A stretch of DNA of 62,087 nucleotides from Candidatus Nanoarchaeia archaeon (lineage in GTDB: Archaea > Nanobdellota > Nanobdellia > Woesearchaeales > JACQSR01), in assembly GCA_035289105.1 (NCBI GenBank), contig DATDYF010000040.1:1-62087 (forward strand), read 5' to 3'. Under the pieces are notes generated by a model. That model worked only from the letters and a program-made list of their open reading frames with translations, did no database searches and was not told the origin of the DNA. The translations under genes were made by a program, and so were the position numbers. Shown here one piece after another: positions 47,012 to 62,087 of the stretch (position 1 is its first letter; each line of letters opens with the position of its first letter).

Positions 47012-47046
47012 TTTTTAAATACCCTTCCTAAGTTCTCCGCAAATAT

Positions 47047-47140
47047 GCCCCGATAGTGTAGTCCGGCCAATCATTTTGCCCTCTCGGAACATAACTGTTG
47101 AAGACAGGCAAAGACTCGAGTTCAAATCTCGATCGGGGCA
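47047..47140 (+). tRNA. tRNA-Glu(CUC) with 19-nt canonical intron
   Basis: GCCCCGA/UCGGGGC+A; D-arm GUGUAGUCCGGCCAAUCAU typical of archaeal tRNA-Glu; anticodon stem UUGCC/GGCAA; T-arm UCGAG-UUCAAAU-CUCGA; T-tract after. Confidence 0.85.
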
Positions 47141-47190
47141 GTTTTTCTTTGAGAAAATTATATATACTAAGTCAGTTTTCCATTAATACA

Positions 47191-56444: not shown

Positions 56445-56960
56445 ATGAAAAAGCTGCTAGCGTTCCTTACAGCATTGATTGCACTTGAAAGCGTTCATGC
56501 GCATTGCCCGCTGTGCACAGTAGGCGCTGCGGCTGCTGCTGGGGGAGCTGCCTACCTTGGAGTTAGCAATGTGGTTATTGGAATCTTCATAGGAGCATTT
56601 GCCGTTTCCATGGGGTGGTGGGTTTCAAGGCTAATCAAGAGGCAGTTTGTTAGGTTCCAGATGCCACTCATAATTTTGCTGTCATTTGCCACGACAGTTA
56701 TTCCCATGATGCCCTTAATTAAAGGGTATTATCCGCTTTATGTTTCGGTCATTGGCGACTACGGCGGCATATACTTAATTAACCTTTTTTTGGCCGGAAG
56801 CTTTGCCGGCGGCTTTATCGTGTCAATCACGCCATGGCTAAGCAAGAAGATTGGAGACTTAAGGGGAAATATGCTGCCCTATCAGGGGATAGTACTTACT
56901 TTCCTCATGCTAATTTTGACCAGCGCAGCTGTTGAAGCAGCCAGATATTTCAGCGGGTGA
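56445..56960 (+). CDS. membrane protein with N-terminal HCPLC motif
   Basis: Signal-like N-terminus, CxxC, then 4 TM helices; 1-nt spacing to the DUF411 gene. Confidence 0.5.
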   Translation: MKKLLAFLTALIALESVHAHCPLCTVGAAAAAGGAAYLGVSNVVIGIFIGAFAVSMGWWVSRLIKRQFVRFQMPLIILLSFATTVIPMMPLIKGYYPLYVSVIGDYGGIYLINLFLAGSFAGGFIVSITPWLSKKIGDLRGNMLPYQGIVLTFLMLILTSAAVEAARYFSG

Positions 56961-56964
56961 AACA

Positions 56965-57462
56965 ATGGAAGATGAAGTGAAGAAATGGCTCAAAAAGGTT
57001 GAAGATGTAAAGAAAGGCGATGTGGACCTTTCGAGGGATGAAGACCTTAGCATAGCCATAATGAACCTTGTCAGCCTGGAGGAGCATTTCTATTTCTCTG
57101 CGATGAAGACAGAAGACCAGAAATACCTTGACATGCTTCATTCTGTCAGGGAAACCAGAAAGAATCTGCTTAAAAAAATAGTGACTGAGCCCAAAGGAGA
57201 GGAGTGGTGCATAAGCAAGCATCTTTTGGGAGCAAGCATGCGCTTAATAGAAGTGGGCACAAAGGAGCTTTCGAAAGGCAACGCAAAGGAGGCGAATAAC
57301 TTTTTTACTCAGGCATTCAATCTTTACTCGTTGTTCTTTGCAATCAACCTGAAAATGATTGAGTCAAAGAAGCTGGAGCAGGGGGCGCTCCAGAAAGAAG
57401 AGAAGATGAGCAAGTTTTCTGCAATAATAAAGAAGATAGTTGACTGCTGCAAGGAATGGTAA
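56965..57462 (+). CDS. hypothetical helical protein ending in CCKEW
   Basis: ATG at 56965 just after the previous stop; 165 aa. Confidence 0.45.
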   Translation: MEDEVKKWLKKVEDVKKGDVDLSRDEDLSIAIMNLVSLEEHFYFSAMKTEDQKYLDMLHSVRETRKNLLKKIVTEPKGEEWCISKHLLGASMRLIEVGTKELSKGNAKEANNFFTQAFNLYSLFFAINLKMIESKKLEQGALQKEEKMSKFSAIIKKIVDCCKEW

Positions 57463-57580
57463 TGGGCCCAGCCAGACTTTCGTTTTAGGGTTGCATTTCA
57501 CTCCGAAGTTCGTGGCATCGTAGATGCCACTTGACTGCGGGGTGTATCGGGCGCAGCCCTTACTAATGGGCCCAGCCAGA
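57460..57580. repeat. 17-nt direct repeat (TAATGGGCCCAGCCAGA at 57460-76 and 57564-80) bracketing an 87-nt two-hairpin insert
   Basis: Exact repeat. The right copy is the 3' end of tRNA-Val (T-stem 3' strand + acceptor + 3 nt). Confidence 0.85.
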
Positions 57581-57687
57581 GTCGAACTGGCGACCTTCTC
57601 CATGTTGAAAACAGCTTCGCAGTTTTCAAAAGATTCAGCGGAGCTGCATCCGTCAAAGAGACGTCATAACCACTAGACCATGGGCCC
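57567..57687 (-). tRNA. tRNA-Val(GAC) with about 48-nt canonical intron
   Basis: GGGCCCA/UGGGCCC+A; D-arm GUCU-AGUGGUUA-UGAC; anticodon stem UCUCU/GGAGA, loop UUGACG|intron; T-arm GCCAG-UUCGACU-CUGGC. Confidence 0.8.
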
Positions 57688-57710
57688 CTGAATGGAAGCG
57701 CATTTGCCAG

Positions 57711-57722
57711 TTTTATAAATAT
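57711..57722 (-). promoter_or_regulatory. TATA box (TTTATAAA core) for tRNA-Val
   Basis: Box centre is about 29 nt upstream of the tRNA 5' end at 57687. Confidence 0.45.
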
Positions 57723-57856
57723 TGTGATGGAAGATGAAAATAAATGCCTCTAATGGGCTATGCCTGGTTTGGGTATAGGTGGGGGCGGATTATCGTTCAA
57801 AACAAAAAGGTTTAAAGATTTGTTAACACATACTACACACATTGGAGATTGTCAAA

Positions 57857-58075
57857 ATGGTTAATATGACATTATCAGTGCCAGAAGGACTTCACAATGA
57901 AATGGAAGTCCATTCAGAAATTAAATGGAGCGATGTAGCTAGACAAGCTTTTGAAAAGAAAGTCAAAGAGTTACATTGGATGGACAAGGTTTTAACAAAA
58001 AGCACCTTGACCGAGAAAGATGCTGAAGAGATTGGGCACAAGATAAAACATGAAGTCAGAAAAAGATTCTCTTAG
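57857..58075 (+). CDS. VapB-like antitoxin
   Basis: MTLSVPEGLHNEMEVHSEIKWSDVARQAFEKK pattern common upstream of archaeal PIN genes. A TTG at 57842 is also possible (TATA TTTAAAGA at 57811-18). Confidence 0.6.
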   Translation: MVNMTLSVPEGLHNEMEVHSEIKWSDVARQAFEKKVKELHWMDKVLTKSTLTEKDAEEIGHKIKHEVRKRFS

Positions 58076-58478
58076 GCTGATAGTCGATACGAATAGGATT
58101 ATCGCTGCATTAATCAGATACTCTATTTCGAGAAGGATTATAACTCATCTTGATGCAGAACTCTACACAATTGGTGTTTCTGAGAGGGAAATTGCGGGGT
58201 ATAAAAGCCTCATCTTGAAAAAAGCAGGGCTAAATGAGGTGGAGTTGGATGTGGTATTTGAAAAAATCAGAGAGAGGATGATAATCTTGGAGGATAACTT
58301 GGTATTAACAATGATAAAGGAAGCAAAAGAGATAATGGATAAAATAGACCCTGATGAGACTGCATTCATTGCTGCTGCACTTGCGATAAAAGCAGATATA
58401 TGGTCGGATGACAAACATTTTCAGAAACAAAAGAATGTTAAGGTTTGGAAGACGAGTGATTTAATGAGGGTATTATAA
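58050..58478 (+). CDS. vapC: PIN-domain (VapC-like) protein
   Basis: LIVDTN..., DPDETAFIAAAL, IWSDDKHF acidic residues in PIN order. Confidence 0.75.
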   Translation: MKSEKDSLRLIVDTNRIIAALIRYSISRRIITHLDAELYTIGVSEREIAGYKSLILKKAGLNEVELDVVFEKIRERMIILEDNLVLTMIKEAKEIMDKIDPDETAFIAAALAIKADIWSDDKHFQKQKNVKVWKTSDLMRVL

Positions 58479-58480
58479 GA

Positions 58481-58565
58481 AGCCTCCGATGGGAGTTGCA
58501 CCCACGACCTTTACCTTTTTGCATTTTATACCAAGGTAACGCAATAGCTACTATGCTACGGAGGC
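58481..58565 (-). tRNA. tRNA-Thr(GGU) with 12-nt intron and atypical D/T loops
   Basis: GCCUCCG/CGGAGGC+U; anticodon stem UUACC/GGUAA, loop UUGGUA|intron|A; T-arm GUGGG-UGCAACU-CCCAU; D-loop AGUAGCUA lacks GG. Confidence 0.7.
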
Positions 58566-58649
58566 ATGTGTTTGGGCTATTCGAAGAATAGACCGATTTT
58601 GGTGCAGCTTTTTGCTTGACAAAAAGATGCCTACCTCTGCTACGGAGGC
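58554..58649. repeat. 12-nt direct repeat (TGCTACGGAGGC at 58554-65 and 58638-49) bracketing a 72-nt two-hairpin insert
   Basis: Exact repeat equal to tRNA-Thr nt 1-12. Hairpins CTATTC-GAA-GAATAG (58577-91) and GCAgCTTTTTG-CTTGA-CAAAAAGaTGC (58604-30). Confidence 0.8.
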
Positions 58650-58696
58650 GTAGCACGGAGTTTTTTACACCCTTTTTTAAAGATTTGTTACAAAGA

Positions 58697-58707
58697 TTTA
58701 TAAAATA
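58697..58707 (+). promoter_or_regulatory. TATA box (TTTATAAAATA)
   Basis: Box centre is about 26 nt upstream of the GTG at 58728. Confidence 0.4.
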
Positions 58708-58727
58708 GGAGGTTATATTAATTTTAG

Positions 58728-59162
58728 GTGGTAGGTATGTCTGTAGACCGCGTTTTTATCGATTTTTTTCTTGATGTAATGAAGAGGGGAAGAAAGCATA
58801 TTTGGAGCCTCCATCGCGCATTCAGGCCCGAGAAAAGCCTTGAGCAGAAGGTGGCAGAGCCGCCTGCTTTCACCCTGGAGAGAGATGAAGATAGTTTGGG
58901 GTATATAGAAAAGCCATTTTTCTCCGTAAAATCTTACAGGGACCTTGCTATCAGGATTGCCTATGCCCCGTTGGAGATTTACAACAAATTCGAGAATGTG
59001 GCTATCGGTGCTACCGGATTTGCGAAGTGGCTTATGCCTGACACCGAGAAGTATTACTGGTTTGACTCGGTGACAAACAAGCCGGTTTTCTTCAAAGTAC
59101 CCAAGAAGATATACGATATTCTCAAGGAACGCGGCTTTATTCTGGACTACCTGAAAGAGTAA
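58728..59162 (+). CDS. hypothetical protein
   Basis: 144-aa ORF (GTG at 58728 or ATG at 58737); no motif. Confidence 0.45.
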   Translation: MVGMSVDRVFIDFFLDVMKRGRKHIWSLHRAFRPEKSLEQKVAEPPAFTLERDEDSLGYIEKPFFSVKSYRDLAIRIAYAPLEIYNKFENVAIGATGFAKWLMPDTEKYYWFDSVTNKPVFFKVPKKIYDILKERGFILDYLKE

Positions 59163-59163
59163 A

Positions 59164-59293
59164 TGCGAGGGAGGGGATTTGAACCCCCGGACTCACTAAG
59201 AGACAGGATGTCCTATTTACACATAGGTGCCTTCTTAAGTCCTGCGCGTTTGGTTGCCCGATTGCTTTCAATCTCCAGGCTTCGCTACCCTCG
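59164..59293 (-). tRNA. tRNA-Leu(UAA), class II, two introns (D-loop about 21 nt; 37/38 about 24 nt)
   Basis: GCGAGGG/CCCUCGC+A; D-stem GCG/CGC; anticodon stem CAGGA/UCCUG, loop CUUAAG|intron|A; T-arm GGGGG-UUCAAAU-CCCCU. Confidence 0.8.
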
Positions 59294-59317
59294 CGTTAGG
59301 CTCTAAGGCTCTTACGC

Positions 59318-59327
59318 TGTTTAAAAA
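59318..59327 (-). promoter_or_regulatory. TATA-like box for tRNA-Leu(UAA)
   Basis: GTTTTTAAAC on the minus strand, with its centre about 29 nt upstream of the tRNA 5' end. Confidence 0.4.
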
Positions 59328-59369
59328 CATTTCCCAATATTTTTATATAACCAACTCTTAGATGGCTCC

Positions 59370-59924
59370 ATGGTCCTTCTCAAATCAGAGCAAAAGCTGA
59401 AAATCGGCGATAAGGCGCCTGATTTCTGCCTTAAGGGGGTTGACGATAAGGTATATTCGCTGAAGGATTTCAAGAATGAAAAAGCATTGCTCGTCGTGTT
59501 TATGTGCAACCACTGCCCGTATGTCAAGGCAAAGTTTGAGGTAATAAAAGGGATTGCCTCGAAGTACAAAGACAGAGGGCTTGTTGTTGTGGGCATAAAT
59601 TCAAATGAATCAATAAATTATCCTGATGACAGCTTTGAGAACATGAAGAAAGCAGCAAAAGAGAAGAAATTTAATTTTGCTTACCTTTACGACGAAACAC
59701 AGGAAACTGCAAAGGATTATGGGGCTGTTTGCACTCCAGACCCATTTCTCTTTGATTCAAATATGAAGCTGGTTTATCATGGAAGGCTTGACAATGCGAT
59801 GAGCCCGGGAGAAACAGCAACATCCCATGACATGGACGACGCGGTTGATGCACTACTCAAGGGAAGGCCAATCAGCAAGGGATTTCTTCCATCACAAGGC
59901 TGCTCGATTAAGTGGAAGGATTAG
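59370..59924 (+). CDS. thioredoxin-fold redoxin (AhpC/TSA-like, CNHC motif)
   Basis: ALLVVFMCNHCPYVKA; 184 aa. Confidence 0.8.
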   Translation: MVLLKSEQKLKIGDKAPDFCLKGVDDKVYSLKDFKNEKALLVVFMCNHCPYVKAKFEVIKGIASKYKDRGLVVVGINSNESINYPDDSFENMKKAAKEKKFNFAYLYDETQETAKDYGAVCTPDPFLFDSNMKLVYHGRLDNAMSPGETATSHDMDDAVDALLKGRPISKGFLPSQGCSIKWKD

Positions 59925-60421
59925 TAGGCGTAAGCGTTAAAGTGAGACTTAATAGCTGCGTGGAGCTCATTTGTTTCCTTTATCGCCAAATCCTCGTATT
60001 TGTTTGTCCAGATTTTCCACACAAACCTGTCAAAAACAGCCCTTGAAAAGTAAAACCAGGGCTTGTTTTGCCACCTGCCGCCAAGCTCGCTTTCAAGGAA
60101 CGTGTCAAATATCAGCAAAACCTTCCCCTGATTAAGGCGCTTTTTGCCCTCTCCTTTTTCGATAATGATTTCCTGAACGTCGGACATCAAGGCGCGCAGC
60201 CTTATTACCTGCCTCTGCCATTCCACCCTGTTCTTCCATATCTCAATCTCCCATTTGATGCTTTTTCCCTCCGGCGCCAGCTCCTCGTGCTTTATCTTTA
60301 TCTCGCGCTCCATGCCATGCTCCATTATCCAGTCGTCGACAAATTTGTAGAATTCCTCCACCTCAAACAGCCCGGAGTAGCTCAATCTCAGCTCATCAAC
60401 AATAAGTTTTTTCTCAACCAT
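59921..60421 (-). CDS. uncharacterised paralog 1 of a tandem triplet
   Basis: 166 aa; clearly alignable with the next gene (KGEGKKRLNQGKVLLIFDTFLE...RWQNKP vs KEGKKARLGQGRVIMFLDAFLE...RWDDKP). Confidence 0.6.
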   Translation of the reverse strand: MVEKKLIVDELRLSYSGLFEVEEFYKFVDDWIMEHGMEREIKIKHEELAPEGKSIKWEIEIWKNRVEWQRQVIRLRALMSDVQEIIIEKGEGKKRLNQGKVLLIFDTFLESELGGRWQNKPWFYFSRAVFDRFVWKIWTNKYEDLAIKETNELHAAIKSHFNAYAY

Positions 60422-60422
60422 C

Positions 60423-60959
60423 TTAATGCGCGAAGTGGGGCACTACAGTTACCGGCTTGTAATGCCTGTACACATTGAAGTATTTTTCAAGCACATCAAA
60501 CAGGTGATGCGCATCGTAAGTAAGCTGCTGCTCGAATCTTTCGGTGTATGTCTTGAAAAGGAATTTGTCGTACATTGTGCGGAAAAAGAAAAGGATTGGC
60601 TTGTCATCCCACCTGTGCTCATAGTCGTGCTCGAGAAAGGCGTCAAGGAACATAATAACGCGCCCCTGGCCAAGCCTTGCTTTTTTGCCCTCTTTTTCCA
60701 CTTCAACATCGTTCAGGTCGTAAATAAGGATTCTAAGCTTTATGATATACCTGTAGTAGTCAGTAACCTTTTTCCAGGGCGAAATCTGCCATTCAATGAA
60801 TTTTCCATTTTTTGTGTCGAACTGGAAATTCTTGTCAACCTTTTTTTCATAAGAACGCTCAAGGAGCCATGACTGCACATGCTTGAAAAGGTTATTAACA
60901 TCAAAAATCCCGTTGTACTCAAGCTTAACGTGGTCTACCAAAATCCTTAACTCTGACAT
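60423..60959 (-). CDS. uncharacterised paralog 2
   Basis: 178 aa; 1-nt gap to paralog 1. Confidence 0.6.
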   Translation of the reverse strand: MSELRILVDHVKLEYNGIFDVNNLFKHVQSWLLERSYEKKVDKNFQFDTKNGKFIEWQISPWKKVTDYYRYIIKLRILIYDLNDVEVEKEGKKARLGQGRVIMFLDAFLEHDYEHRWDDKPILFFFRTMYDKFLFKTYTERFEQQLTYDAHHLFDVLEKYFNVYRHYKPVTVVPHFAH

Positions 60960-61522
60960 TATATGTGCACCCCGGTCCAGTAGCGGTGCTCATGCTCCCT
61001 GGAATACATGTTTAAAGTGTCCATCACAAGCTCGTAAAGTTTTTGTATTTCCCTGTACCATAGCTGGTCCCACAGTATATGCTCAACTCTCTTCTTTATT
61101 ATGTATTTATTATAAAAATTTCGCAAATTCGCAAAGAATTTTTCGTCCTGAAACCTTTTCTCATAGTCAAAATCTATATTGCCTTTAAATTCTATCCATA
61201 TGCGCCCTTTTGTCATGATTTTTGTCGAGCCATCCTGGTTCTTGACTTCGATATCCTGCGCATCGTAGGTGTGCATGTAAATTTCAATCACGAATTTGTA
61301 ATATTCCTCTTCCTTTCTCTCGCCTGTCCAGTTGTACTGGCGCTCCCTGCCGAATGCGGTAGGGGCTTTGTGCTTGAATGCCTTCTCGTAGAAGTTGTAT
61401 TTCCTGGAGCGAAACCAGTCAGCCATTTTCTTGTAAAGGTCATCCATGTCCCACACTCCCTTGTAGCGCAGCCAAACCTGCCCTGTTGGAGCTTTGACGT
61501 AGAAATGGGTGGGCTTTTCCAT
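60959..61522 (-). CDS. uncharacterised paralog 3 (more divergent)
   Basis: 187 aa; TAATG overlap with paralog 2; shares the Y.G..D...L.K....W, DIEV...KGRI.I.F and DYE.RF pattern. TATA (TTTTATATAG) at 61541-50 on the minus strand. Confidence 0.6.
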   Translation of the reverse strand: MEKPTHFYVKAPTGQVWLRYKGVWDMDDLYKKMADWFRSRKYNFYEKAFKHKAPTAFGRERQYNWTGERKEEEYYKFVIEIYMHTYDAQDIEVKNQDGSTKIMTKGRIWIEFKGNIDFDYEKRFQDEKFFANLRNFYNKYIIKKRVEHILWDQLWYREIQKLYELVMDTLNMYSREHEHRYWTGVHI

Positions 61523-61560
61523 ACTTTGTTTTTTGATTTAGAAGCTATATAAAACTTTGC

Positions 61561-61625
61561 CTACATCCCGGACATCTTTAACTTTTTCATCATCTTTCCC
61601 ATATCGCCCTTAGAGCCTTTGAGCA
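61561..61625 (-). pseudogene. displaced/duplicate copy of the SRP54 3' coding end (encodes VLKGSKGDMGKMMKKLKMSGM*)
   Basis: About 83% nt identity over 54 nt to the true gene end at 61693-61751. Confidence 0.7.
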
Positions 61626-61692
61626 CATTTCTCTGCAAGAGAAATGAGCAAAGAGTGCAGTCAAGTGGGACACAAGGTCCCACGAACTTCTA
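61626..61692. other. 67-nt two-hairpin insert between the SRP54 end copies
   Basis: CATTTCTCT-GCA-AGAGAAATG (61626-46) and the 34-nt core at 61657-90, which shares its 11+12-nt flanks with 57505-38. Confidence 0.8.
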
Positions 61693-62087
61693 CTAGCCCA
61701 TTTTTAATTTCTTCATCATCTTGGACATATCGCCTTTGGAGCCTTTGAGCATCTTCACCATCTTCTTTGACTGCCTGTATTGCTTAAGCAGTTCTCTGAC
61801 CTCACCCACGCCAATCCCAGAACCTTTTGCAATGCGGTCAATTCTGGATGCAGAGACGATCTCAGGGTCCTCAAGCTCGTCTTTTGTCATTGACTGCATA
61901 GCAATCTTCCATTTCTCAAGCTTGCCTTCCTGGACATCAAGCATTTCCTTTGGGAGCTTAAACTGCGAAAAGCCAGGTATCATTTCAACGAGCTTTGACA
62001 ATGAGCCCATTTTCTTCATTGCGGACATCTGCTCGTATAAATCCAGAAGCGAGAATTCCCCCTTGAGGAATTTCTTGCCCAGGTCTT
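61693..62087 (-). CDS. srp54: signal recognition particle protein SRP54 (C-terminal M-domain part; 5' end outside window)
   Basis: Frame is open to the window edge. ...FSLLDLYEQMSAMKKMGSLSKLVEMIPG...DRIAKGSGIGVGEVRELLKQY M-domain motifs. Confidence 0.9.
   Translation of the reverse strand, partial: DLGKKFLKGEFSLLDLYEQMSAMKKMGSLSKLVEMIPGFSQFKLPKEMLDVQEGKLEKWKIAMQSMTKDELEDPEIVSASRIDRIAKGSGIGVGEVRELLKQYRQSKKMVKMLKGSKGDMSKMMKKLKMG

Follow-up and report, generated by a model that had tools for sequence, protein, structure and literature searches.

The stretch of DNA analysed here (the window, 62,087 nucleotides of contig DATDYF010000040.1, assembly GCA_035289105.1, from a Candidatus Nanoarchaeia archaeon) is a section of a 92-kb metagenome contig, L001, and carries a gene for tRNA-Val(GAC) and a gene for SRP54. 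Behind each of these two genes lies a short non-coding insert, which contains a hairpin core and is bracketed by a direct duplication of the end of the gene, and it is this core, together with the inserts that carry it and their relatives in other genomes, that forms the subject of the present analysis.

The two inserts in the window

The features at the two loci, from the distal side of tRNA-Val to the proximal side of the SRP54 insert, are as follows.

57460..57476, minus strand: distal 17-nt repeat, a spare tRNA-Val 3′ end, and the single copy in the empty-site allele of contig L047
57477..57563, minus strand: element of 87 nt, designated type A, a long, imperfect foldback whose tip is the core, between the 17-nt repeats
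57505..57538, plus strand: core hairpin copy 1, GAAGTTCGTGG-CATCGTAGATG-CCACTTGACTGC; exact pattern match; 56.2 bits, E 8e-16 with covariance model R1
57564..57580, minus strand: proximal 17-nt repeat, the functional tRNA-Val 3′ end (position 60 to discriminator) plus TTA; used in the Rfam and ARAGORN models
57567..57687, minus strand: tRNA-Val(GAC), host of copy 1; ARAGORN with introns allowed; Rfam RF00005, 52.1 bits
61561..61625, minus strand: distal, spare SRP54 tail, which encodes VLKGSKGDMGKMMKKLKMSGM plus a stop codon; beyond it lies the promoter region of the next gene
about 61626..61692, minus strand: insert of ~66 nt, designated type B, between the SRP54 stop and the spare tail
61640..61712, minus strand (SRP54 sense): candidate bulge-helix-bulge (BHB) motif from a strict BHB scan
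61657..61690, minus strand: core hairpin copy 2, GAAGTTCGTGG-GACCTTGTGTC-CCACTTGACTGC; exact pattern match; 49.5 bits, E 1.6e-13 with R1
61693..61755, minus strand: proximal SRP54 tail, the functional C-terminus ending in MLKGSKGDMSKMMKKLKMG, with the stop at 61693-61695; from the list of open reading frames (ORFs) and repeat analysis

The core pattern, GAAGTTCGTGG-N11-CCACTTGACTGC, matches the 62-kb window exactly twice, a scan of the window allowing up to three mismatches returned nothing beyond these two copies, and the chance expectation as determined with 100 dinucleotide shuffles is 0. The central 11 nt differ between the two cores, and the perfect stems of the window copies are GTGGCATC/GATGCCAC and GTGGGAC/GTCCCAC, respectively. 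The two cores constitute the longest inverted repeat of the window, 4118 nt apart; read in the sense of the host gene, copy 1 is the reverse complement in tRNA-Val, and copy 2 is forward in SRP54. The initial annotation of this DNA was therefore accurate in describing two cores with identical flanks, perfect stems with differing centres, and opposite orientations relative to the host genes. The possibility of an assembly artefact, which that annotation had raised, is excluded because the element sequences of the window recur in independent ENA, JGI, Logan and NCBI assemblies.

The tRNA-Val gene has an intron of 48 nt in its anticodon loop, and it was found by ARAGORN only with introns allowed and by Rfam only under permissive filters. 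Its 3′ end is present twice, as a 17-nt repeat (TAATGGGCCCAGCCAGA) at 57460-57476 and 57564-57580 which is identical at 17/17 positions, the TTA of the distal repeat being the complement of the stop codon of a convergent ORF at 56932-57462. In tRNA sense the 87-nt element between the repeats begins with GTAAGGGCTGC and ends with GCAACCCTAAAACGAAAG; a test for terminal inverted repeats revealed an imperfect foldback in which, among others, TAAGGGCTGC is paired against GCAACCCTA, and the corresponding RNA is predicted to fold at -39.9 kcal/mol (z -5.6) for the plus strand and -31.1 kcal/mol (z -4.7) for the minus strand.

At SRP54 the duplicated tail covers ~60 nt, with 61573-61625 being 85% identical to 61699-61751, and the reading frame of the distal tail is open. 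The type B insert consists, in this order, of TA, the core, a T-rich spacer (ACTCTTTGCT) and a second hairpin, hairpin 2 (CATTTCTCT-TGC-AGAGAAATG); it has no terminal inverted repeat and is not a foldback, and 30 nt of it (TTTGCTCATTTCTCTTGCAGAGAAATGTG) recur unchanged in the element at SRP54 of a second Woesearchaeote, which shares 70% SRP54 identity with the window. Folding places hairpin 2 at 61626-61646 as a separate hairpin of 9 bp. It had been claimed that each insert carries a second hairpin, which is borne out at SRP54 and not at tRNA-Val, where the insert is one long imperfect foldback. The direct duplication of the end of the gene that was said to bracket each insert is present in both cases (17/17 nt at tRNA-Val, ~60 nt at 85% at SRP54), and in both it begins at the insertion point and extends as far as the gene does. 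Neither window copy interrupts a mature RNA, as tRNA-Val is complete (Rfam, 52 bits) and SRP54 has its own stop codon.

A family of cores in tRNA genes

To survey other genomes a degenerate pattern was built from three variants, namely the two window cores and a diverged SRP54-linked core of contig L004. This pattern gave 11 matches in 185,579 species genomes, 8 of them in metagenome-assembled genomes (MAGs) of Woesearchaeota/Nanoarchaeia (with three contigs from one MAG) and the remaining 3 in bacteria, where the matching sequence is coding-looking, has no tRNA or SRP54 context and appears chance-like. In metagenomes 15 contigs matched, 12 of which combine a palindromic centre with a tRNA or SRP54 context; over both scans, six matches are apparently due to chance. 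Homologues of the window SRP54 place the window in the same clade as the family, which, as far as sampled, is confined to Woesearchaeota/Nanoarchaeia (DPANN archaea). With ~20 distinct copies in or beside at least 10 tRNA genes plus SRP54 across Woesearchaeota/Nanoarchaeia, the view that the core belongs to a repeated element and is not a cis signal of one host gene was upheld.

Comparison of 16 distinct cores established that the flanks are invariant and that the centre, of 11-22 nt, is always self-complementary; 96% of the cells in the alignment are paired, and 0/500 shuffles reach the covariation score. Double-sided changes occur at the three pairs 7:47, 16:37 and 18:35, at which complementarity was not forced by the search pattern; the switches are A-U/G-C, G-C/C-G and U-A/C-G. 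The hairpin is thus a selected structure, as had been proposed, and since the unpaired positions C11, U42 and U43 are conserved like the stem, more than a hairpin is being kept. The covariance model R1, a check that the initial annotation had suggested, recovered every member at 39-60 bits as well as two extra copies in loci that had been fetched for another copy, and over the window it returned no copies besides the two known. A U.G/C:G/U:A pattern at pair 10:44 favours the forward strand, albeit at a single pair only. No Rfam covariance model matched either insert at the gathering threshold or at E<=5, and no description of this core was found in the literature searched. Two inverted copies 4.1 kb apart do not form the regular array of a CRISPR repeat, and readings of the core as a K-turn, C/D-box, T-arm mimic, integron attC site or dif-like core were rejected, as none fitted when compared by eye with the consensus features.

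Nearly all relatives of the window elements lie inside or adjoining tRNA genes, and most of these interrupt the tRNA either at position 37/38 or in the T-loop at 59/60. Members of type A (L019, L020, L023, L024 twice, and L034) interrupt the T-loop between 59 and 60, and in tRNA sense their ends read 5′ GTAAGGGYTGC...CGATACACCCC - core - ...AAATGCAAYCCTA..(C/T)GAAAG 3′. The 3′ end, CGAA, pairs with the universal TTCG of the T-loop, leaving a 3-nt bulge beside the T-stem, and the 5′ end pairs with the element's own 3′ part, so that a relaxed BHB can be read from the sequences with splice sites that fit a 59/60 intron. In silico deletion of the element restores tRNA-Gln(CTG) in L019, tRNA-Pro(CGG) in L020 and a third tRNA in L024. 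Over its full length the 87-nt element behind tRNA-Val is 86.7% identical (78/90, end to end) to the T-loop intron of the L019 tRNA-Gln; unlike the situation in L019, the T-loop and the element are separated in tRNA-Val by 17 nt (tRNA positions 60-76 plus TTA). Owing to this proximal copy the tRNA-Val is already complete, and the element and the second 3′ end represent trailer. The 3′ half of a BHB is still present at tRNA-Val (CGAA paired with the T-loop TTCG, an AGT bulge and a CTGGC helix), and the 5′ half is broken up by the 17-nt proximal copy.

The type B architecture of core, T-rich spacer and short A/T-rich hairpin was encountered as a canonical 37/38 intron of 90-91 nt in tRNA-Thr(UGU) of L022 and L033, and removal of these introns restores the gene, as it does in L028, where a core-bearing intron of 79 nt with a strict BHB and 7-bp outer helices interrupts a tRNA. 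Outside mature RNAs, type B elements occur after tRNA-Ser(UGA) in L037 and L041, near tRNA-Leu(GAG) (after it in L039, before it in L025), and after SRP54 in the window and in the second Woesearchaeote (L026, L029 and L043). In the sample of this second Woesearchaeote the elements at the 3′ ends of SRP54 and tRNA-Leu(GAG) are near-identical over ~150 nt, and since this similarity ends right after hairpin 2, one end of the element is thereby defined. The core has one orientation only in 9/9 true introns, and both orientations are seen among copies outside mature RNA. The forward copies all follow the end of a co-directional gene (SRP54 twice, tRNA-Ser twice, and a protein gene in L025); that the forward orientation is unseen within tRNA genes may be because the T-rich spacer would there become an oligo-T on the sense strand.

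Two further arrangements were noted in these genomes. The tRNA-Ala(GGC) gene at L034:8930-9075 (minus strand) has two elements: a T-loop intron without a core, the start of which (CATTTCCTTTCAAAGGAAATGAGCAAAGG) is homologous to the SRP54 element when the latter is read antisense, and a core-bearing type A element directly past the 3′ end (TTA|GTAAGGG). At L059:13700-13910, from a relative with 83% SRP54 identity, a copy of the 5′ end of tRNA-Thr(GGT) (GCCTCCGTAGCAT...) without a core lies ~80 nt upstream of the intact gene.

Filled sites, empty sites and strain mosaics

Contig L047, which derives from another sample, lacks exactly 104 nt at tRNA-Val as compared to filled sites such as that in L044, that is, the 87-nt element and one 17-nt repeat, and its flanks are 99.95% and 100% identical to those of the window. 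It has an ordinary tRNA-Val, the TTA of which overlaps the stop codon of the convergent ORF. The site is filled in four other assemblies.

For SRP54 a homology search retrieved a variant of 445 aa ending in KKLKMSGM on contigs L049, L050 and L051, where the promoter of the adjoining gene comes immediately after SRP54, and both the core and a second tail are missing. Relative to the window strain, the identity of these contigs is 99.6-99.96% as far as the point 20 nt ahead of the stop codon, and only 86-87% from the start of the distal tail on. Empty sites, which the initial annotation had advised looking for in relatives, thus exist in exact or near-exact form for both window copies, as a DNA-level mobile or removable element would predict. 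The two lineages that meet at the element have diverged to the same degree as the two SRP54 tails (85% identity), so that the latter figure provides no evidence that the distal tail is translated, and selection on this tail as a translated exon was discarded as an unneeded assumption. In contig L004, likewise, an SRP54 and element that are L026-like (97.5%) are followed by a downstream region that is L001-like (95%), with the switch in hairpin 2 or at the start of the distal tail. In a separate comparison with L046, L004:1787-2750 was found to be 87% identical over an AhpC-like gene, as against 95% identity of L004 to the window strain overall; in these groundwater samples, lineages that differ by about 5-14% make up a fine-scale mosaic within the Woesearchaeal population.

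Target duplications were established at tRNA-Val (17/17), at tRNA-Ser(TGA) of L037 (16/17, with the mismatch in the distal copy) and at SRP54 in two lineages, and tRNA-Phe of L031 has a possible decayed distal copy. Their length is not fixed, being 17 nt in tRNA-Val, 16-17 nt in the L037 tRNA-Ser and about 60-79 nt in SRP54. The borders of the tRNA-Val duplication are 59/60 and +3, and relatives occupy the same two borders, 59/60 as an intron and +3 as a trailer (TTA|GTAAGGG in tRNA-Val, in tRNA-Lys of L035 and in tRNA-Ala of L034). To judge from these positions, the borders may point to a staggered break at 59/60 and +3, or alternatively to a break at one border that was repaired from a donor allele with the element at the other. 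The trailer element of the L035 tRNA-Lys (L035:1-110) has the left arm and both core flanks, ~40 nt, in common with window positions 57505-57566 at 100% identity, and differs from the window tRNA-Val element in its core centre and its unrelated right arm; this suggests that halves of these elements may reassort.

In relatives with 86% and 83% SRP54 identity the gene order SRP54, 187-, 178- and 166-aa genes is kept, one of them having a different hairpin insert after SRP54 and the other nothing, and the 83% relative has no tRNA-Val at that position; such close relatives are without the core across 19 kb of conserved synteny. Because the neighbouring genes are conserved in relatives without a core, the region between the two window cores is native DNA, and the two cores are independent insertions. 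The same conserved synteny rules out a genomic island downstream of SRP54.

Proposed origin and movement of the elements

We lean towards regarding the core as the conserved apical hairpin of a family of mobile, intron-derived insertion elements, the members of which are small (about 55-250 nt), non-coding and hairpin-rich. The best explanation of the sequences compared is that the family derives from, or may even equal, the BHB-type tRNA introns of Woesearchaeota/Nanoarchaeia, a tie that is drawn because the tRNA-Val insert matches T-loop introns and the SRP54 type is that of the 37/38 tRNA-Thr introns. An element would move at the DNA level, in either orientation and non-autonomously, with the help of an activity encoded elsewhere. 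A copy placed within a tRNA without duplication would survive since its own ends build a BHB with the exon, the 3′ ...CGAAAG pairing with the universal T-loop TTCG and the 5′ GTAAGGG... with ...CCCT, from which the splicing endonuclease could remove it. Where the tail has been duplicated, the proximal copy would finish the gene with no need for splicing, and the element and the spare tail would be harmless in a 3′ trailer or untranslated region, in which the spare tail would decay. The core is most likely a cis site for this mobility or recombination activity and is unlikely to be a signal that serves the host gene. Our confidence in any particular insertion chemistry is low, a route via RNA ligation and reverse transcription being possible. 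The initial annotation had spoken of a DNA-level or autonomous element; the first half of that description is supported by the two orientations and the empty sites, and the second is not supported, given elements of 55-250 nt that are non-coding and have no recurrent neighbouring gene.

Several results weigh against this interpretation. The true introns lack a duplication, so that two outcomes or a second step are needed, and the variable duplication length (17 versus ~60 nt) is unlike what a fixed-stagger transposase predicts. An exact deletion between the two 17-nt repeats, which the strong foldback would favour, could account for the tRNA-Val polymorphism just as well as a recent insertion. 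The BHBs in the T-loop are relaxed and not canonical, with a 5′ bulge of 2-3 nt and an interrupted inner helix, and their splicing is predicted. The folding energy of the core favours no strand (mean difference -0.2 kcal/mol, forward more stable in 10/16), the window holds two copies, and the scan of the source genome covered 62-92 kb. No mobilising enzyme was found in the form of an ORF family recurring near the 16 loci, and three pattern scans of IMG/VR (2.9 million viral contigs) gave only chance matches in coding regions or nothing, and thus no viral or plasmid-like carrier.

Duplicated gene ends of this kind would ordinarily bring to mind att sites, as known for SSV1 and pNOB8 at archaeal tRNA genes and for phage 21 and e14 at icd of E. 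coli. By this account a virus or plasmid with a tyrosine integrase inserted into the segment of tRNA-Val from the T-loop to the 3′ end, a second one did so at the 3′ end of SRP54, a replacement gene tail came with each, and the element body was later deleted to leave attL, attR and a short remnant with an integrase-binding hairpin. Direct repeats of the att type are present at both borders, a repeat from the T-loop to the 3′ end of a tRNA is the classic footprint of an integrase, as is an in-frame replacement of a protein-gene tail with synonymous differences, and integration and excision would agree with the existence of both filled and empty alleles. However, there is no body: only 87 or 66 non-coding nucleotides separate the repeats, the 57-62 kb region of the window contains neither an integrase gene nor a piece of one, and a double-stranded circle of 104 bp would seem too small as an integrase substrate. 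The supposed remnant is a full-length homologue of introns that are uninterrupted, spliceable and without repeats, the same core is found inside canonical 37/38 introns, no related sequence occurs in the viral contigs, and the many different tRNA hosts would need as many attP specificities; the differences between the SRP54 tails, for their part, reflect recombination between strain lineages. We therefore consider att-site scars an unlikely origin of these loci.

It is also conceivable that the window copies are functional introns with alternative exons, cut by the tRNA splicing endonuclease, such that a 54-nt intron in SRP54 gives rise to a longer C-terminus. Around the core, the SRP54 sense strand has a strict hBHBh′ motif, AGAAAT-TAAA-[AAT]-GGG ... 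CTC-TTTG-[CTC]-ATTTCT, with a 6-bp h, a 4-bp H and a 3-bp h′. Helix h is formed by 61712-61707 with 61645-61640 and the central 4 bp by 61706-61703 with 61652-61649, with 3-nt bulges at 61702-61700 and 61648-61646, and the predicted intron spans 61700..61647. A cut after the second base of the bulge would take out 54 nt including the stop codon and join the proximal tail in frame to the distal tail (...K-TFLLQRN-V...). Motifs this good occur around the core in 1.9% of flank shuffles, and two of the pairs are G.U, which would read C.A on the opposite strand. L026 is predicted to give the same in-frame junction, though its motif is much weaker. BHB introns also occur in archaeal mRNAs such as that of cbf5 (PMC2738675), where the intron interrupts the coding region and must be spliced; the SRP54 motif, if used, would equally be an mRNA intron spliced by the endonuclease, but the unspliced SRP54 mRNA is already complete. 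Splicing at SRP54 is suggestive only, because the empty alleles are evidently viable, the distal tail of L026 has a premature stop relative to the proximal tail, and the strict/relaxed BHB scanner is noisy, giving several chance hits per 600 nt (the shuffle test was applied to the SRP54 motif only). At tRNA-Val the proximal 17 nt leave no intact 5′ half for the BHB, and no splicing is needed to complete the tRNA, and the synonymous differences of the SRP54 tails are explained by lineage mosaicism, which together render this explanation rather improbable. There is a small chance that a bolder version applies, in which these elements are a hitherto undescribed class of mobile BHB mini-introns in DPANN archaea, the core being the handle of a DNA-level machinery whose cuts in tRNA genes, at T-loop position 59/60 and immediately beyond the 3′ end, produce the gene-tail duplications, with protein genes invaded as well and the 54-nt SRP54 intron spliced to yield two C-termini from one gene.

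A cis-acting signal of the host, be it a terminator, a stabiliser of RNA 3′ ends or a processing hairpin at the ends of highly expressed genes, could account for the forward copies, all of which stand just 3′ of a co-directional gene end with the core followed by the T-rich spacer. We hold it to be very improbable, as most copies are oppositely oriented and lie inside introns, where they are discarded, both sites are empty in near-identical strains, the close relatives are without the core over 19 kb of synteny, the T-runs are short (just CTTTG at the window SRP54), and there is no match to an Rfam family. There is next to no likelihood that the two inverted cores are the ends of a single 4.1-kb transposon or invertible segment (57505-61690). 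As the longest inverted repeat of the window they would suit such a role, yet the intervening genes also adjoin SRP54, as conserved native neighbours, in core-less relatives (L052, L055/L059), their central 11 nt differ, and the copies are polymorphic separately, L047 being without the tRNA-Val copy only and L049-L051 without the SRP54 copy only; a composite transposon bounded by the cores was rejected on the same grounds.

The statement in the initial annotation that no archaeal element of this architecture is known needs to be revised, given that the homologues are 59/60 and 37/38 tRNA introns and that 'intron transposition' has been described (PMC4090602). The nearest known phenomenon is the 'large-scale tRNA intron transposition' of Thermoproteales, where the resemblance between introns that occupy different positions in unrelated tRNAs was taken to reflect transposition at the DNA level by an unknown mechanism (Fujishima et al. 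2010, summarised in PMC4090602). Like those introns, the elements reported here imply spread at the DNA level, with the splicing endonuclease excising them at a BHB to which the exon contributes. As far as their description allows, the Thermoproteales introns are set apart by the DPANN hosts of the present family, its asymmetric conserved core of 23 nt with a variable, compensating centre, its copies in trailers, a leader and the tail of a protein gene and in both orientations, the duplication of the target up to the end of the gene, and filled and empty alleles within one population. The nearest case at population level is that of Caldiarchaeum subterraneum, in which the gain of an intron in tRNA-Thr(GGU) was accompanied by duplication of a tRNA fragment and by heterogeneity in the population, and was interpreted as a DNA-level event (Sugahara et al. 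2012, PMC3293823); it was attributed to an insert between the repeats that is 1.8 kb long and encodes a recombinase, and an integrase model of the pNOB8 type fits (PMC3293823, which also summarises the archaeal tRNA-gene integrase cases SSV1 and pNOB8). The present family resembles it in the heterogeneous tRNA locus and in a duplicated tRNA fragment alongside a gained intron, and differs in that the insert is 87 nt long, non-coding and itself intron-like, with no recombinase nearby.

There is also a likeness to miniature inverted-repeat transposable elements (MITEs) and foldback elements, in that the elements are small, non-coding and structured, type A is an imperfect palindrome flanked by a perfect repeat, and presence/absence polymorphism is observed. 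Unlike in MITEs, the duplication length is not fixed, the targets are the 3′ ends of genes and the loops of tRNAs, and type B is not a foldback; an autonomous relative encoding a transposase was found neither near the 16 loci nor in the viral contigs.

The family is consequently not categorically new, and is a testable handle on the movement of archaeal tRNA introns. Ever since sequence similarity led to the inference of 'intron transposition', it has been debatable by what means such introns reach new positions and genes, and the locus offers an intron family with a diagnostic core in three states, namely as an interrupting intron, as a copy behind an intact gene and as an empty site, with one family copy in a protein gene, which makes the mechanism testable. 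It also carries a warning for the annotation of DPANN genomes, as default tRNA finders miss such genes, and gene-tail duplicates and strain mosaics cluster at the elements.

Of the five tRNA genes detected in the window, four have introns: Glu at 47046-47141, Val at 57567-57687, Thr at 58481-58565 and Phe at 59164-59294, the last being an uncertain call with a 61-nt intron at position 31. With ARAGORN at default settings and the Rfam gathering threshold, Glu is called Arg, and Val and Phe are missed. A ribbon-helix-helix (RHH) antitoxin/PIN toxin pair at 57858-58478 (plus strand) lies between tRNA-Val and tRNA-Thr, and on the source contig a PemK-like toxin is encoded just upstream of SRP54. 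Directly downstream of SRP54, at 59921-61522 (minus strand), are three tandem paralogous genes of 166, 178 and 187 aa with no Pfam hit, an arrangement kept in both the 86% and the 83% relative. The NC_groundwater_1390 Woesearchaeote (L052:2445-2560) has another insert of ~110 nt after the SRP54 stop, with two long hairpins (AGAAATCGCC...GGCGATTTCT and CAAGAAC...GTTCTTG), no core and no duplicated tail, and the 3′ flank of SRP54 seems to be a hot spot for structured insertions. Finally, codon 51 of SRP54 is TAA at L001:8648-8650 (about 62873-62875 in the contig record, just outside the window), dividing the gene into ORFs of 50 aa and 375 aa; L003 and L049 have TCA (Ser) at this codon and are otherwise identical over the first 74 codons, and the TAA either stems from an error in sequencing or assembly or represents a nonsense allele of this essential gene.

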